Below are positions 1 to 45,105 of a DNA stretch of 64,000 bases, one piece after another (within the stretch, counting starts at the first letter, position 1; every line of letters begins with the position of its first letter). A program made the position numbers and the translations under genes. This DNA is from Escherichia coli (lineage in GTDB: Bacteria; Pseudomonadota; Gammaproteobacteria; Enterobacterales; Enterobacteriaceae), in assembly GCA_023061495.1 (NCBI GenBank), contig GCA_023061495.1_3643.1; one strand, 5' to 3'. The notes beneath the pieces are model-generated. The model was given only the letters and a program-made list of their open reading frames with translations. It did no database searches and had not been told where the DNA came from.

Positions 1-3000
1 GGCTTTTGGAAGATCCGGACCTTTATTATCACTGCGGCCTGTTTAAAGCGTTGAATAAGAACCGTTTTATGCTGTTCCTTCCTCTGAATGACCGCACACA
101 CTACTCCGAGGAGGATATAGAGAAGGCTAAGAACTTTATTCTGGCAAAGAAAACTCTTTATAAGGATTTTGAAGTTCGCATAGCAGATTTTTCAGAGTTG
201 GAAGGTTGGCTTACAGGAAATTCCGATTGGTCACCAACAGCTTTGAACTGCCATAACTGCTACAGTTATGACTTTATGCTGATGGAAAGATTATCCGGTA
301 TTCATTTTGATATGTTCCGTGATCCTAAATGCATGGGGACTATCAACAACCACCAGGTTAACCTGTTTGATACGTTGGCGATGAGCCGAATCTTGTGGCC
401 TGATCGCCCTTTACCAAAAGGTTGTCCGGACGCTGTATTCAACCCGGTTACTAAGAAAATGCAGCCTGTTGGTCCTCACGGCCTTATGGCATGGGGCTAC
501 GCCCTTGGTAACCAGAAAGTTCAAATTGATGACTGGCGCGATCTTCCGTTGTGGAAGTATGTGGATCGTGTATTCGAGGACGTTATCATCCAGGAGCTGC
601 TCTGGAAAGAGTTGGTAGCGGAATCAAAAGGTGTATTCTACGGCAAATCTGACATGCAGAACTTTATGTACGATCCTGCCAAAGAGAAGCCGAAAGGCTT
701 CAAGAAGATCACCTGGAAGAATGCATTGCGCCGGGGTATGCTGCAACACTTCCTGATGGAGCTGCAGGCCCGTCAGGGTGTGTATTTTGACATAGATGGG
801 GCTATTGCTTTACGTGACCGTTGCGATGCGTGGATGAAAGAAATCGCTGATCGTGTTGAACCACAACTACCTTTAAAAGAGCTGTCAATGTCTCAGCGGC
901 CCAAGTTCCCTGAAAAGCCGTTTAACCAAGATGGGACAATCTCCAATAATGGTTGGAAATGGTTAAAAGATAAGCTTGGCTATCCTGTGGACATGAGCGC
1001 TTTAGAGTTCAAAGCCCCACCTAAGCGAGCATTTACCTCCACAGGGGATGTCAGTAAGATGGGGATAAAATGGTGTGAAGAGATGGGCTGTAAAGACCCT
1101 GATAAGATGGCTGATTTCTTGAGGGGCTATATTAAGGGCACTTCCACACCACAACCTTTACCTAAAGAGCTAATGGATCAGGCAATAAGTGATCTACAGC
1201 AGAAGCGAATGCCTGACTGCAAGATACCTATGAAAATCAGCAATCAGGACGACATTAAGCGATACCTGATTAGTGCTGGTTGGCTTCCGACAATGTGGAG
1301 AACTAAGGATGTAACTAAAGACAGCAAGAAGAAAGCTCTACCTGATGCAGATGTTGATGCACGAGTATATGCATATATGGACGAGCTTTTAGAGTCAGAG
1401 TATTGTGACCTGATTATCAACTTCTGGAACAAAACTGATGCTAAGTTCCAGACAACCGTGCACAAGTTCCGAAGCTTTCCTAACTCCGAAAGGATTAAAA
1501 AGGAAGTATTCGGGAAAATACGTAGAAAAGCTAGGGCACTTATTACTTCTCCGCAACTGAAAGATACGTTTGGACACCTATGCCCTAATCTTGAAAAATT
1601 GAACGGAGAGATGGCTAAAGATATCGTCTTGTGGTTATCATTGCGAAACCGCAGATCGGTACTTGATCCAATCAAGGAGGATAAGGTTGATACTGGTCTT
1701 CTTAATCACCCACGTTTGAAGATTGACCATAAGCTTCCTGCTAAAAGTTCTGGGTTAACAAACACTTCCCGACAGAAACACAGTATTTGTGCGAACATGC
1801 CTAAACCATCTCCTAAAGTGGTTATGGGTAAAGAGATGCGTAGTCTGTGGGGTGTTCCTCCGGGATACTTTGAGATCGGTATTGACGGGTCCAACTTAGA
1901 GCAGCTTATCGGGGCTTGGGGTGCCTTTGAGTTCGACAACGGCCTGTATTATGATGTTGTAAGTAACGGCGATGCACACTGCTATTCAGGAGATACACAA
2001 ATTCTCACAGAGAAAGGGTGGATAAGGTTTGAAGATCTTGATCAGGAAACGCAAGTGTTCCAGTACGATCACAACACCTCGTCAATGAGCCTTGTTACTC
2101 CACTAAACTACGTTAAGCGGAGTTATTGCGGGGATATGTATCATTTCCACAACAGCAGCGTGGATTTTATGGTTACAGATCAACACAGAATGCTGACTGT
2201 TGACCACAGAAGCAATAAATTGTTTGAGGATTTGGCAAAAGATCTGAAAGCAGGTAAAGGGTCTAATTCAGGAAGAAGGTTTATCCATGCGGCAGAGTTT
2301 TATGGGAATACAACCTTATCCCCTGCTCAGATTAATTTACTTATTGCTATCCACGATGACGGAAACTTGCATACAAATAAAGATGGAAGCAGCGTATGCA
2401 GGGTCCAGGTTGGAAAGGGGAGAAAAGTTGCAATGCTTTTGGATACCTTTTCTGCTCTAAATCTTGATTATACAGAGCAGTGCGGGAAAACAACCAAAGG
2501 AGGTTTGCTGGCAAGAAGATTCCAATTCCACGTGCCGTCTTGGGTGTTTAAGTTTTTGGACAGCAACAAAGATTTCACCTATAGTTTGATGGATCTTGAT
2601 AAAGAATCTAAAAACCTGTTTATAGCTTCTTTATCTAACTGGGACGGGTGGGTATCTTCCGAAGGTGGAAAAGTTATTTACTACTCCCAGGCTGAGTGCA
2701 GGAAGAAATCTGTAGAAGTGGTGTCTGCCTTGGCTACTCAGTGTGGTTTACGGAACAACACGGTGACAATTCACAGAGAGGGTCGTGCCGTGCAGCACAG
2801 AATTACAATTGGTAGCAAACAGAAAGCAGGTTTACTAACACTGGATAAAGATCTTGTCGAGGTGAGTAATTCTTTGGTTTATTGCGTCACCGTTCCCTCC
2901 GGAGCGATTATTGTAAGGAGAGGTGGCAAGGTTGCAGTGTGCGGCAATTGCAATAACGCCAAAGCCTACTCTGCTGTAGCAGGTAAGGAAATTTCCCGTA

Positions 3001-3359
3001 ACGATGGTAAACCTGTCACGTATGGGGTTATGTACGGGGCACAAAAAGATAAAGTTGCAGATATGCTAGATATCTCTCCAGAACTGGGGCAGAGAGTAAT
3101 TGACGCTCTCTGGGATGCCAACCCAGGCCTTAAGGGGCGCAAAGAGGATCTGGAGAAATTCTGGGAAGCAACAGGTAAGAAATTTATCTATTCTTTTGAC
3201 GGCCATGCCATCTGGACCCGCTCTAAACACTCTTTGCTTAATGCATATCAGCAAAATGGCGGTGCCTCGTTGTGCGACTTGGTCGGAATCCTCATGCACC
3301 ACCAGATGGTGAAGCGTGGATGGTATGATGAGGGTGTTCGTCGTATTATTTATTACCAT
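1..3359 (+). CDS. DNA polymerase family A (3'-5' exonuclease + polymerase domains), exon 1; 5' end outside window; contains an intein
   Basis: Frame open from window edge; Exo II-like LNCHNCYSYDFMLM, motif A GIDGSNLEQL, motif B RNDGKPVTYGVMYGAQ; track ORF stops at ...IIYYHK* with HDE of motif C missing, so coding is taken to end at the H codon (3357-3359). Confidence 0.85.
1980..2948 (+). mobile_element. Intein (about 323 aa) with LAGLIDADG-type homing endonuclease domain, inserted after GDAH between pol motifs A and B
   Basis: Starts CYSGDTQILTEKG (block A), TDQH/TVDH (block B), LIAIHDDGN and LSNWDGW (LAGLIDADG-like), ends ...VAVCGN followed by Cys; removal restores GDAH-CNNAKAY junction. 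Confidence 0.75.
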
Positions 3360-4202
3360 AAATAACATTGTGGCTTCGTGCAGTGATGCACGTCGAAAAC
3401 CTCTTTAATTGACGGGAAGGCTAAGTTGACTTTTACACCTAAACATGGTAAAAGCTCAATATGCTAATCCGCAGCGAAGACTAAAGGGGTGTAGTTAAAA
3501 TGGCTAGATCAGCTGATTATCACGGGTATACCGTGTTTGATGATGGAACAATACCTTTATCGAAACGTGATCATACAACAATGTTTTGTTTTGATAATGG
3601 TCGAGGTTACCTTTGCGTGACCATGTTCATAGAGGGGAAGCAGTGCACAAAAGGTGTCCACCACTTAGTTGCTGAGTGCTTTGTATCAAACCCTGATCCT
3701 GAAAGGCTCACATGGGTGAACCATAAGGATGGAAATAAGTACAACAATGCATACTGGAACCTGGAGTGGACCACCCCCTGGTGGAAATATCAAACACGCC
3801 TACGATAATGACCTCAGAGTAAGGCCAGTCGGCGAGTATAATGCCAATGCTGTGCTGACCGAGGATGAGGTAATGGAGATTTGTGAACTGTTACAGAGCG
3901 GTCTACGACAATGTGAGATTAGGGATCTTGGGTATCCTTATGAAACGGTCAGAGCCATAAAGCAAAGAAGACAGTGGAAACATATCTCTAAAAACTACAC
4001 CTGGTAGTAACGTTCAGAGACTATCGAAAGCATAGCTCCAACATAGTTTGGTGTGAAGAAGCGAGTAGAGTAGGCCAGCAAGTGCGGTCGAAATGAGAGG
4101 TGCCTTGGTAACAAGGCAGTGAGATAGTCCGATCCATGCGGGAAACTGTATGGCTATGCACGTAATGGTGCGGGGTAGCTTAACGACCTACCTGAACTAT
4201 TG
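3360..4202 (+). mobile_element. Group I self-splicing intron in DNA polymerase gene, carrying an HNH endonuclease ORF
   Basis: 5' exon ends in U (3359), intron ends in G (4202); P-like AATTGACGGGAAGG (~3408), Q-like AATCCGCAGC (~3468), R-like GTTCAGAGACTA (~4010), S-like GAGATAGTCC (~4124); candidate P1 CCAU/GUGG; splicing joins ...IIYYH to DEYQLQV. Confidence 0.75.
3500..4007 (+). CDS. Intron-encoded HNH homing endonuclease, apparent frameshift near 3775-3790 (track ORFs 3500-3808 and 3729-4007)
   Basis: HNH core HHLVAECF...VNHKDGNKYNNAYWNLEWTT in one frame; continuation GNIKHAYDND...LTEDEVMEI...RQWKHI in the next frame; shift at the CCCCC run. Confidence 0.65.
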
Positions 4203-42186: not shown

Positions 42187-43446
42187 TCAGCAACCACAAC
42201 TTCCGTAGTGCTTAACTCGCTCGATAACTTCCGCTTGCTTACCTTTATTGTAAGGACGGGAGTTAGGGCTGGAAAGGTATCCAGACACACGTCGAATTAC
42301 ACTGATCGTTCCCTCTTCATGGTTTCCACACCCTGGGCATACAAAGCCTTTAGCTGTTGCACTGAACTCACCAGAGAAACCGCACTTGAGACATTTATCT
42401 ACAGGTTGGTTAATACCAAAATACATAATGTGTTTATATCCGAAATCAACAAGAGCTTCCAAAGCATCTAAGTTGTTTTTCAGATTTGGTGTCTCTATGT
42501 ACCCAATGTTGCCACCAGAGGAGATCATAGCAAAACCTTCCTCATACTTCCACTTATCAAAAGGCGAGCTATTGATCCATACTGGCTGATGGAAACTGTT
42601 GGTGAGGTATTCATGCTCGTGCTTCAACACTTCTGGGTATTCACGATCCAGACAGGTTGCAGCTTTATAGCATAAACTCTCAGAAGGTGTGCCGTACAAG
42701 CTAAATGCTAGTCCACTTTCCTTCTTGTATCGCTCACAAGCATCTTTCATGTGCTGAAGGATTCCAAGAGCTAAAGCCTTGTCACCCTCTCTGCCCAAAA
42801 TCTGACAGGTTTCATACACACCAATATACCCAATACTGATGGAAGCGTACCCGTCATAGAAGAGTTTATCGATACTCTCTTCAGGATCCAGGCGAGCAAG
42901 AGCTCCTTCACACCACATGATAGGGTTCTGCCCTGCCTTTGTTCCTTTTAGACGGTTAACCCTTACAAGGTGAGCCTCGTATGCAAGATCCAAGTATTCG
43001 TCAAGAACTGCAAAGAAATCAATACCTTCCGTCTTAGCTTTTGCCGCAATCATTGGTAGGTTAAGGCTAACAACACCCAAGTTGAATCTGCCAAGGTATT
43101 TTTCATCACCCTCCGGTGTAACATATTTGCCAAGGAACGACCTACATCCCATGCTTGTTACTTTGCCGTCTGTTGAACCTGTCACTTTACGATTTAGCGG
43201 AACAGAAACAAAGTCAGGATAAATCCGCTCTGCAGAGCATTCTAGGGCTAATCGTTTCAAATCGTAGTTAGGATCCCCAGGGTTCATGTTGACACCCTCC
43301 TCTAAGAAGAACAGCACTTTAGGGAACACAGGTGTGATCCGTTCTTCACCAAGACCCATTTTGTGAACTTTCAAGTAGTTTTTGGTAATCATTCTACCAA
43401 AGACCGAAGTATCCAGCCCTAAACTTAATGTGATGAATGGAGTCTG
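42187..43446 (-). CDS. nrdD: Anaerobic ribonucleotide reductase NrdD, exon 2 (C-terminal part)
   Basis: YLGRFNLGVVSLNLP core block and C-terminal RVSGYLSS glycine-radical-like region; predicted to begin QTPFITL after the intron. Confidence 0.65.
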   Translation of the reverse strand, partial: QTPFITLSLGLDTSVFGRMITKNYLKVHKMGLGEERITPVFPKVLFFLEEGVNMNPGDPNYDLKRLALECSAERIYPDFVSVPLNRKVTGSTDGKVTSMGCRSFLGKYVTPEGDEKYLGRFNLGVVSLNLPMIAAKAKTEGIDFFAVLDEYLDLAYEAHLVRVNRLKGTKAGQNPIMWCEGALARLDPEESIDKLFYDGYASISIGYIGVYETCQILGREGDKALALGILQHMKDACERYKKESGLAFSLYGTPSESLCYKAATCLDREYPEVLKHEHEYLTNSFHQPVWINSSPFDKWKYEEGFAMISSGGNIGYIETPNLKNNLDALEALVDFGYKHIMYFGINQPVDKCLKCGFSGEFSATAKGFVCPGCGNHEEGTISVIRRVSGYLSSPNSRPYNKGKQAEVIERVKHYGSCGC

Positions 43447-44244
43447 CTGTCTCCACCCCTGTGTTTCCACAGGGCCAGACTATCTCTTACTCTACTTCAA
43501 TAAGATAATAACCCTTTATTGTGAGATGCTTACCTTCGGCATTTCCTTCGATAGCCCTGTGGACGTTTCCTACGTTCAAATTTAAGGCTTTTGCACAGGC
43601 ATAGAGTGAAGGATATTCACCCACCAAGGTTTTCCCTTGGTATGCCTGCACTTTCCTGTAGCACTTGCCTGGACAAAGCCCTGTTCGGAAAGCATGTCTC
43701 TTATTATCTTCCGGCAAAACCCACTCTAGGTTAGACGGATGATCATTCAATGTATTGCCATCTTTATGATTCACTTCCCAGTTTTCAGGGTCTTCTGGGA
43801 CATCTGGCAAACAATACAAGGCAACAACCCTTGAAGTTTGGATTCGAATCTTTTTACCTTTGTGGTTGAAAGAATACATATAGCGGCGTTTAACATGCTT
43901 GTTACCTTTTCCATAACCTCCCCACAATATGGGGTGCAGCATTCCACGTTTTCCGTATACGTTTCCCACCTCATCAATCACATAGTTTGATTCTTCACCA
44001 TTAAGAATGATCTTTTTCATAGAGTCTCTCCCTTTCGAAGTTAGTATTTCAACTAACCCCTACACTACTCGGTTCAGAAATGTTTGTCAAGCATCTCTGC
44101 CTTTCGTTAGTCGTTACAACCGTTCCAACTCCTGTAAGAACTAGTCACGGGATTGGCATAGCTTTCGCCTTAGCGTTCCCCGTTAGCCGGATTCACCGAC
44201 CCCTCTTATGAGGTTAGGAGAGTTTTACAACGGCCAGTTTGTTA
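43447..44244 (-). mobile_element. Group I intron in nrdD carrying an HNH endonuclease ORF
   Basis: Minus strand: exon ends AACGGU, intron has GCCGUU for P1; P-like AACGGGGAAC, Q-like CAATCCCGTG, R-like GACTAG, S-like AAGAGATAGTCT; intron ends ...GACAG; boundaries inferred. Confidence 0.6.
43487..44020 (-). CDS. HNH homing endonuclease (intron-encoded)
   Basis: VNHKDGNTLNDHPSNLEWV core; sits inside the nrdD intron. Confidence 0.75.
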   Translation of the reverse strand: MKKIILNGEESNYVIDEVGNVYGKRGMLHPILWGGYGKGNKHVKRRYMYSFNHKGKKIRIQTSRVVALYCLPDVPEDPENWEVNHKDGNTLNDHPSNLEWVLPEDNKRHAFRTGLCPGKCYRKVQAYQGKTLVGEYPSLYACAKALNLNVGNVHRAIEGNAEGKHLTIKGYYLIEVE

Positions 44245-45105
44245 ACCGTTGACAGAAGTTAACGTATTGATTTGGTAGAGCAAAGTTTGCATACTATCAA
44301 ACACGTCTTTATCTGTCATTTGCATTGCAACAGTCTCAGCATCTGGCAACCAATGTTCCTGACAAAATTTAAGGTTCTTCTCATAGGTTGCTTCAGCATA
44401 CTGTGCCAGATAATGATCAATATGGCTCATGGTCTGACCACCATATTGAGCACTAGCTACTGCACTAGAGATTTGGCTAAGGATTGTTGTTGCAACCCCT
44501 ATTGACTTCGGCTTACTGACATGGGCGTTACCAATGTTGAATCCGTTTTCCAGCATATCAGGATAATTTACCAAACAACAGTTTGTTAACGGACTGATCA
44601 GGTAGTCAAGATCATGCACATGGATGAAGCCTTTGTTGTGCTCTTCGGAGACACGGTCTGGCAGGATCTGTGTTGATGCAAGATGTTTGCTAAGGATGCC
44701 TGCAAGCAGGTCACGATGAGTATGAACATGATTAGTAGGCTTATTTGCGTTTTCTTTTGTAAATTCATCACAAGTGCGATCCAAGAAGCCGCTAATATCT
44801 GCAAGCAGTTTTCCACCTGCCTCTCTGTTATTATCTCTTGTCTGTCTATACTGGATGTATTCTCTGGCTGCACATTTTAAACCCATATCCATAAGAGCAT
44901 CTTCAACAAGGATATGGATATTTTTTACAGAGATCGTGCACTGGTCGGTTGGCAGATTGTTGGCAACAACTTCATTAACCGCGCAGGCAATCCGGTAAGC
45001 TTCTTCTTCAGTATGTCCAGACTCAAGTAAGGCGGACTCTGCCGCCTTGATCACCTTAATTCCGTTATAAAACTCTTCTCTACCGTCCCGTTTTACAACT
45101 TTCAC
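44245..45105 (-). CDS. nrdD: Anaerobic ribonucleotide reductase NrdD, exon 1 (N-terminal part with ATP cone)
   Basis: VVKRDGREEFYNGIKVIKA (ATP-cone-like) and FIHVHDLDY; stop codon lies immediately after predicted 5' splice site. Confidence 0.7.

Follow-up and report, generated by a model that had tools for sequence, protein, structure and literature searches.

The nrdD gene of an rV5-like Escherichia coli phage, found on a 64,000-nucleotide stretch of DNA filed under E. coli (assembly GCA_023061495.1, contig GCA_023061495.1_3643.1; hereafter the window), is interrupted by an insert that is very probably a self-splicing and mobile group I intron (subgroup IA2, the phage type), placed between the codons for Gly287 and Gln288. 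We hold this view because intron-less alleles of the gene are continuous, because versions of the insert of 257-279 nucleotides (nt) exist that have no open reading frame (ORF), and because the insert has a covarying P1-P9 structure with P7.1 and P7.2 helices and a P3/P7 pseudoknot. The same three lines of evidence support the original prediction, made from the window's letters, that a group I intron splits nrdD; every position and sequence feature given with it was confirmed. The window itself derives from a Vequintavirus (rV5-like E. coli phage)—its 3.1-kb region around the insert is 97.8% identical to Escherichia phage FV3 and 93-96% identical to dozens of further rV5-like phages. The features discussed below are collected in Table 1.

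The two parts of NrdD were expected to lie about 800 nt apart, the ATP-cone part upstream and the glycine-radical part downstream, and both the ORF coordinates and the Pfam matches agree with this, the gap being 798 nt. On the minus strand, the upstream ORF (44242..45105) encodes 287 amino acids (aa) with the C-terminus ...TSVNG followed by a TAA stop; the downstream ORF (42187..43470) includes QTPFITL, which begins at 43446. The exon-1 ORF matches the ATP-cone and positions 1-154 of the NRDD profile, and the exon-2 ORF matches positions 155-562 and Gly_radical; therefore, the two pieces abut in the Pfam model. Joining 44245 to 43446 gives a 706-aa protein that reads in frame through TSVNG/QTPFITL (the slash marks the junction), with a predicted spliced junction DNA of ...AACGGT/CAGACTCC....

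Removing the insert restores a continuous, conserved frame, as seen in comparisons with phage HMD-6 and with T4 NrdD. The intron-less HMD-6 allele matches a 400-nt probe of the joined exons without gaps at 98.5% identity; its uninterrupted sequence across the junction is ...TSVNGQTPFITL..., and the encoded protein, TSVNG/QTPFITL, is identical across the junction. The intron-less target sequence of the HMD-6 or EduardKellenberger allele reads ...AACGGGCAAAC..., and intron-less sister phages carry TSVNG/QTPFITL ungapped, exactly at the predicted junction. Aligned with 1H78, the sequence of the T4 NrdD crystal structure, the joined 706-aa protein scores 562 bits and has no gap at the junction; against the full-length 9D3X it likewise runs ungapped through the junction. 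The in-frame splice and the product of roughly 706 aa are thus as originally proposed, and the N- and C-terminal parts prove contiguous within the NrdD family. The boundaries are equally constant: in 15 of 15 intron-bearing alleles the last codon of exon 1 is GGU and the last base of the intron is G, and a G precedes exon 2 (CAA or CAG) in all homologues, the expected omega-G falling at 43447 in the window.

Inteins too occur in phage ribonucleotide reductase (RNR) genes (PMC3653736), and an intein, a group II intron or a translational bypass could be considered in place of a group I intron; the sequence already refutes all three, and we give them next to no probability. The insert opens with an in-frame stop and has more stops in the exon frame, which argues against an intein; searches of it yielded neither a reverse transcriptase ORF nor a group II match; and at 798 nt it far exceeds known bypass gaps.

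Table 1. Coordinates of the split nrdD gene, the insert and its predicted elements in the window
Feature	Coordinates	Strand	Remarks
nrdD exon 1	44245..45105	minus	ATP-cone and N-terminal part of NRDD; GTG start; last codon GGT
Probable group I intron	43447..44244	minus	798 nt; first bases are an in-frame UAA; last base omega-G at 43447
nrdD exon 2	42187..43446	minus	Remainder of NRDD, glycine-radical domain, stop codon
P1	44229..44250	minus	Exon AACGGU 44250..44245; loop UAACAAACUG; internal guide GCCGUU 44234..44229; U·G at 5' splice site
P3 5' strand	44217..44222	minus	CUCUCC; after P1
P3.1 and P3.2	44186..44213	minus	CCUC/GAGG and GUCGG/CCGGC; extra hairpins between P3 and P4; compensatory changes in both
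P4-P5-P6 domain	44122..44183	minus	P4 ACGGGG/UCCCGU; P5 GC..GGC GAAA GCU..GC; P6 GUUCU.AC/GU.GGAAC
P7 5' strand	44108..44112	minus	GACUA; preceded by J6/7 GGUUGUAAC
P7.1 hairpin	44075..44099	minus	CAGAGAUG/CAUUUCUG; TTGACA 44090..44085 in loop; covaries
P7.2 hairpin	44037..44060	minus	GGGGUUAGU/ACUAACUUC; covaries
P3 3' strand	44026..44031	minus	GGAGAG; doubles as Shine-Dalgarno of HNH ORF
P8 5' strand	44020..44025	minus	ACUCUA; covarying helix
I-HmuI-like HNH homing endonuclease ORF	43487..44020	minus	177 aa; fills P8 loop (L8)
P8 3' strand, J8/7, P7 3' strand	43478..43494	minus	UAGAGU, AAGAGAU, UAGUC
P9 hairpin	43457..43474	minus	CCCUGUG GAAA CACAGGG; GAAA tetraloop
Hairpin around 3' splice site	43439..43454	minus	Tail GGAG 43454..43451 pairs with exon 2 CUCC 43442..43439

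The insert has the conserved core of a group I ribozyme—helices P3 to P9, the P3/P7 pseudoknot and all four of the P/Q/R/S-like elements that had been predicted (CUAACGGGGAAC, CCAAUCCCGUG, GUUGUAACGACUAA, AAGAGAUAGUCU). The predicted P1, in which exon AACGGU pairs with intron GCCGUU, lies where it was placed, with a U·G pair at the splice site; its six pairs, the U·G included, are invariant in ten distinct sequences. There is no P2, and the 5' strand of P3 comes directly after P1. Both P7.1 and P7.2 stand between P7 and the 3' strand of P3, and the core is without a P5abc extension. This placement of P7.1 and P7.2 characterizes subgroup IA2. The subgroup is the type usually seen in phages and includes the introns of T4 td, nrdB and sunY and those of Twort and SPO1; it was reportedly defined by Michel and Westhof in 1990. 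Downstream of P9 the intron ends in a tail of 10 nt.

Compensatory change is seen across lineages in several of these helices. The P3 pairing CUCUCC/GGAGAG becomes CUCUGC/GCAGAG in an ORF-less Vequintavirus variant, and the sequence of P8 differs in each lineage while always remaining paired (ACUCUA/UAGAGU, AACUUA/UAAGUU, AAUCUA/UAGAUU, and in further versions AAUUUA/UAAAUU, GUCUGA/UCAGGC and AGCAUCU/AGAUGCU). To the helices listed for the core we add a hairpin around the 3' splice site, in which the intron tail pairs with bases +5 to +8 of exon 2 and the splice site lies in the loop. By lineage its versions are GGAG/CUCC, GGGG/CCCC, GGCG/CGCC and GGGCA/UGCCC, and whenever the intron base of the pair changes, the wobble position of a Thr codon changes with it (A-U, G-C, C-G).

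The structure was modeled on ten distinct related introns from which the ORF had been removed, aligned with MAFFT, and the model comprises 78 pairs. Among the ten sequences 92.8% of cells are paired, compared with 36-50% when the partners are slid by one to three columns; pairs changed on both sides number 28, against 2-14 in the slid versions, and none of 500 shuffles reached the observed pairing values. These pair counts are conservative: in the variable part two rows were misaligned by MAFFT, namely the ORF-less Vequintavirus type (P7.1 to P8) and L103 (P3.2). The helices were instead verified segment by segment. A minimum free energy fold of the 257-nt ORF-less copy (z = -4.6) recovers P1, P3, P3.1, P3.2, P4-P6, P7.1, P7.2, P8 and P9.

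Two other assignments were considered and set aside. An alternative P3 (UCGGU/ACCGA) is broken in phita32 and L109, which have ACCAAG with no compensating change, and its partner strand doubles as the 5' arm of the covarying P3.2. The labels P2 and P2.1 for the hairpins before P4 do not suit their position, which in both cases is 3' of the P3 5' strand; hence the names P3.1 and P3.2.

The covarying fold also bears on the proposal that the HNH gene and its flanks divide nrdD into two polypeptides that are translated separately and assemble after translation, with no splicing involved. Aeromonas phage Aeh1 provides the precedent, its nrdA being split by the HNH gene mobE into two polypeptides without a ribozyme (PMC3653736); in contrast, a conserved group I fold flanks the ORF here. 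Such an arrangement would suit the two nrdD ORFs annotated by gene callers and in several GenBank records, the stop codon at the end of exon 1, and the in-frame AUG that the last three intron bases form before exon 2 in L101 and L103; moreover, one HNH-associated insert of phage CB7 failed to splice (PMC7344957). However, it gives no role to the two invariant features of the boundaries, the U·G pair at the 5' end of the insert and its terminal G, and it does not account for a covarying group I fold that is kept in every lineage, including the 257-279-nt ORF-less copies that would merely break the gene. The second half of nrdD also lacks good start signals of its own: exon 2 of the window has no AUG at the junction, and its sole in-frame start is a GUG in the P9 stem without a clear ribosome-binding site. 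We therefore regard two separately translated halves as very improbable.

The loop of P8 is filled exactly by the HNH ORF that had been predicted inside the intron at 43487-44020; the 5' strand of P8 ends on the A of the start codon AUG, and the 3' strand ends on the U of the stop codon UAA. The ORF scores 29.4 bits against Pfam HNH_3 (cut-off 24.8) and more weakly, at 18.4 bits and below the cut-off of 27, against I-HmuI_NUMOD-like. A profile of the endonuclease family matches I-HmuI (PDB 1U3E) with E = 5.7e-11 over residues 8-161, nearly its full length, and the N-H...N...N motif is invariant within the family (N84, H85, N97, N106). The HNH_3 match, the His-Asn-Asn motif and the NUMOD-like C-terminal part together place the protein among the I-HmuI-like HNH enzymes.

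A covariance search of the insert on the minus strand (43447-44244), proposed along with the original prediction, gave a divided answer: the threshold of the Rfam group I model RF00028 was missed, and the P4-P7 and J8/7-P7-P9 parts of the model do match. A search of the whole window at the gathering threshold (50 bits) returned no match to RF00028. In a relaxed search the window copy reaches 26.7 bits; the 5' half of the model in this alignment falls inside the HNH ORF and is spurious, and its J8/7-P7-P9 part is real, as is a separate 11.3-bit match that covers P4-P6 and P7. The ORF-less homologues align over the full length of the model with 29.2-41.8 bits (E from 1.3e-5 to 1.4e-7), and the T4 nrdD (sunY) intron, used as a positive control, scores 105.3 bits.

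Several points weigh against a functional group I intron of the usual kind. The relaxed score of the window copy is below the 50-bit threshold, and so are the scores of the ORF-less homologues. The canonical P10, the pairing of the guide sequence with exon 2, amounts to only 2-3 base pairs (bp), for which the hairpin around the 3' splice site may be a substitute. It is uncommon to find two hairpins between P3 and P4, but P3.1 counts among the recognized optional elements of group I introns (PMC3873408). Furthermore, our literature search found no splicing or cleavage experiment on this nrdD intron. In the endonuclease, the residue before the catalytic His is Asn, compared with Asp in I-HmuI; the Asp is one that we take to be a metal ligand, and the change of residue may thus be a change of metal ligand.

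The Rfam score under threshold and the weak P10 could also be read as signs of decay. If so, the insert would be a former group I intron that no longer splices, leaving nrdD a pseudogene in this phage, in which the class III RNR may be dispensable in the laboratory; the absence of the intron from many relatives and the apparent frameshift in the HNH ORF of the window's other intron (described below) would be in keeping with this. Yet both exons are intact and 94-98% identical to those of relatives, with mostly synonymous differences, all core helices have been maintained through compensatory change in lineages whose endonucleases share only 51-65% identity, and the HNH ORF is intact with a conserved catalytic motif. 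We judge such a relic to be highly unlikely, marginally more so than the two-polypeptide arrangement, and continue with the self-splicing intron.

The closest comparison is with the sunY intron of T4, which is also an nrdD intron and falls in the same conserved stretch of the gene (...NTLxSxNGQTPF...). The layouts are alike: neither intron has P2, GUAAAA and then P3 follow right after P1, and P7.1, P7.2, GAAAC before the P3 3' strand, and P8 are present in both; the sunY P3 is UCUGCC/GGCAGA, and an in-frame UAA starts the intron, as here. The two ribozymes are of the same structural type. However, the sunY intron lies 32 nt upstream of the site described here, inside the Tyr codon of AYE-Y-EVNTLFSSNG/QTPF, and its ORF comes after P9 and encodes the GIY-YIG enzyme I-TevII, whereas the ORF here is in L8 and encodes an I-HmuI-like HNH enzyme. 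The sunY intron is also without the P3.1 and P3.2 hairpins, and it scores 105 bits against RF00028 compared with 27-42 bits here. The insert is therefore not the sunY/I-TevII element, and the suggestion that it represents a different combination of intron and endonuclease was correct.

Other phages offer partial parallels. The DNA polymerase intron of SPO1, which encodes I-HmuI, is a phage group I intron with an HNH enzyme of about 175 aa, as here; the match between I-HmuI and the present family includes the NUMOD-like C-terminal part, at low sequence identity. The host gene and the phage group differ, and I-HmuI is a nicking HNH enzyme, whereas its counterpart here is known from sequence. Within the same subfamily, Vequintavirinae, Pectobacterium phage CB7 (Certrevirus) has elements of the same kind—its HNH introns in terL, pol, nrdA and nrdB splice by reverse transcription PCR—and its nrdD is reported as uninterrupted (PMC7344957). 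The rV5 paper reports introns in terL only.

The distribution of the insert is what would be expected of a homing element, as ORF-bearing introns, ORF-less introns and empty sites coexist in close relatives. Our survey of occupancy covered about 119 records with nrdD exons at 90% identity or more, counts that are inflated by RefSeq/GenBank duplicates: about 28 records have the intron with its ORF, 14 have an ORF-less intron, and the rest have an empty site. In the phage collection searched, about 28 GenBank records carry the intron at 95-99% identity, and about two thirds of the related phages have no insert at this site. The 257-nt ORF-less insert occupies the same site in HeinrichReichert and 13 other records and is covered by RF00028 over its whole length (29.8 bits, E = 1.3e-5). 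Metagenomic phage contigs encode homologous endonucleases with 51-65% identity, all of them at this same nrdD position. A search with a family-specific 24-mer revealed further ORF-less copies of 277 and 279 nt (RF00028 scores of 32.9 and 41.8 bits), and gave no matches in 185,579 bacterial and archaeal genomes. A broad pattern scan for td-like cores returned 93 viral stretches, of which one, L014, is a close relative.

Signs of mobility also appear around the insertion site and within the intron. Alleles with the ORF-less intron have a cluster of synonymous exon differences from the window near the insertion site, a pattern that would be expected from co-conversion. Three intron-less Vequintavirus alleles have GGG as the last codon of exon 1 and CAA (not CAG) as the next codon, and one intron-less Avunavirus allele has GGU at the last exon-1 codon. 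The intron copies are also mosaic: in the 5' core and P9, L106 matches L099 and L107 matches L101 (99-100%); in their P7.1-P8 modules, L106 and L107 instead resemble each other (86% and 94%). The middle module (P7.1-P8), with or without its ORF, has therefore been exchanged on its own.

The structure suggests how splicing and homing might proceed. A message spanning nrdA, nrdB, grx, nrdD and nrdG would be transcribed through the intron, and ribosomes would stop at the UAA formed by its first three bases. The RNA would then fold into P1 and P3-P9, and a free guanosine would attack after the U of the P1 U·G pair; the terminal G at 43447 would dock, and the exons would be ligated. The predicted outcome is an mRNA for the continuous 706-aa NrdD, a product that the sequence comparisons above support. 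The I-HmuI-like enzyme encoded in the P8 loop presumably nicks or cuts the intron-less nrdD of co-infecting relatives near the insertion site, and repair would copy in the intron together with adjoining exon bases, which constitutes homing.

The position of the ORF's translation signals raises the question of how the endonuclease is expressed. Its ribosome-binding site, GGAG, stands 7 nt before the AUG and is part of the P3 3' strand. A folded ribozyme should conceal both translation signals, the ribosome-binding site in P3 and the AUG in P8; on this model the folded ribozyme would block translation of the HNH ORF, and translation would in turn unfold the ribozyme. The same logic, in which a folded ribozyme hides translation signals, is said to have been shown for T4 I-TevI by Gibb and Edgell in 2010.

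On the minus strand, the TTGACA in the P7.1 loop (44090..44085) is followed 17 nt downstream by TAGTGT (44067..44062). The TTGACA is present in all four ORF-bearing lineages, each with a different P7.1 stem, and in none of the three ORF-less lineages. Speculatively, TTGACA-N17-TAGTGT may serve the endonuclease gene as an internal promoter, and a transcript that began there would have no P3 5' strand, which could free the ribosome-binding site. Four observations weigh against such a promoter: a promoter consensus scan did not call the site, TAGTGT agrees with the -10 hexamer at only three of its six positions, ORF-less copies too keep the AGUAG(U)GUAGGG stretch, and the upstream regions of three other HNH introns have no motif of this type.

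A broader proposal is that this intron family couples ribozyme folding to endonuclease expression, and defines its 3' splice site, by ways undescribed for phage introns. It draws on the exchangeable P7.1-P8 cassette with its promoter-like motif, on the ribosome-binding site in the P3 3' strand and the AUG in P8, and on the hairpin around the 3' splice site; we consider it doubtful. If it were true, only the transcript from the internal promoter would be translatable for the HNH ORF.

The nrdD intron is already known from database annotation and is an ordinary type of phage element. In the records of FV3 (2012) and FFH2, an entry named "HNH homing endonuclease" separates two nrdD fragments; the BASEL records of MaxBurger, EmilHeitz and WalterGehring give nrdD as a two-piece joined coding sequence (CDS) with an internal "putative homing endonuclease", and the BASEL record of HeinrichReichert joins the nrdD CDS around the ORF-less form. 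These annotated copies (four BASEL phages, FV3 and FFH2) are 94-98% identical to the window at the DNA level. The BASEL authors set the intron boundaries by comparative genomics (PMC8594841). Our literature search found no paper that describes the ribozyme structure, the subgroup or the endonuclease family, or that tests splicing. The TTGACA in the P7.1 loop of ORF-bearing lineages and the covarying hairpin at the 3' splice site may be new points.

The intron leaves current understanding unchanged; it is one more case of a known pattern, in which phage RNR genes are hot spots for homing-endonuclease introns at their most conserved codons. For annotation it has a practical consequence—in many deposited rV5-like genomes "nrdD" is entered as two or three fragments alongside a "hypothetical protein", where the correct product would be one 706-aa NrdD. 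In addition, near-identical phages have nrdD with an ORF-bearing intron, with an ORF-less intron or with an empty site, which makes the gene a convenient natural system for studying the homing cycle and how selfish elements compete.

On the minus strand of the window the gene order is nrdA, nrdB, glutaredoxin, the interrupted nrdD, a small ORF and nrdG. The GTG start of nrdD overlaps the glutaredoxin stop as GTGA (45102..45105), which suggests translational coupling. The BASEL records place the nrdD start 210 nt downstream of the GTG at 45105, a choice that would cut off the ATP-cone; Pfam locates the ATP-cone at residues 1-91 of the product that begins with the GTG.

Other sites in nrdD are also occupied by introns in related phages. 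A second site, empty in the window (near 43140), is filled in the sister phages HMD-6 (L004 2009..2760) and phita32 (L003 2559..3310), directly before the Cys codon of ...KVTSMG/CRSF..., the counterpart of PMGCRSF in T4 NrdD, whose Cys is presumably the catalytic Cys290. The intron at this second site is sunY/td-like (GCUCAUGUAAAAUCUAUCUAAACGGGG) and has a different HNH ORF, of 169 aa, with its ribosome-binding site in a local hairpin. In L106 and L107, another intron (RF00028 75 bits) follows the main one at a distance of a few hundred bases and may share the second site. A third site near residue 170 holds a 206-aa HNH ORF in L099 (1477..2470) and an ORF-less insert of about 340 nt in L101 (2073..2411). 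The nrdD genes of Vequintavirinae thus have at least three occupied intron sites, and with the T4 site there are at least four distinct sites across phages.

The window has another group I intron at 3361..~4195 on the plus strand, in a family-A DNA polymerase gene; exon 1 ends with ...IIYYHK at about 3362, and coding resumes near 4200. It matches RF00028 with 28.7 bits at 3350..3605, below threshold, and has R- and S-like elements at about 4013-4027 and 4121-4133. Its HNH ORF is spread over two overlapping frames (3500..3808 and 3729..4007), which suggests either a frameshifted, decaying endonuclease gene or a sequencing error. The polymerase ORF (6..3365, plus strand) also seems to contain an insert of about 350 aa, at roughly residues 640-990 and running from CYSGDTQILTEKGW to ...VAVCGN/C, that is a putative intein; Hint_2 matches weakly at the N-terminal motif (E = 0.018, 15.9 bits, below cut-off). 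Lastly, phage V18 (NC_041937, L113 101..498) has an intron-less nrdD of which 398 of 400 nt align to the joined exons; it has no annotated CDS there and a search pattern for the junction did not match it, and the gene may be frameshifted or a pseudogene.

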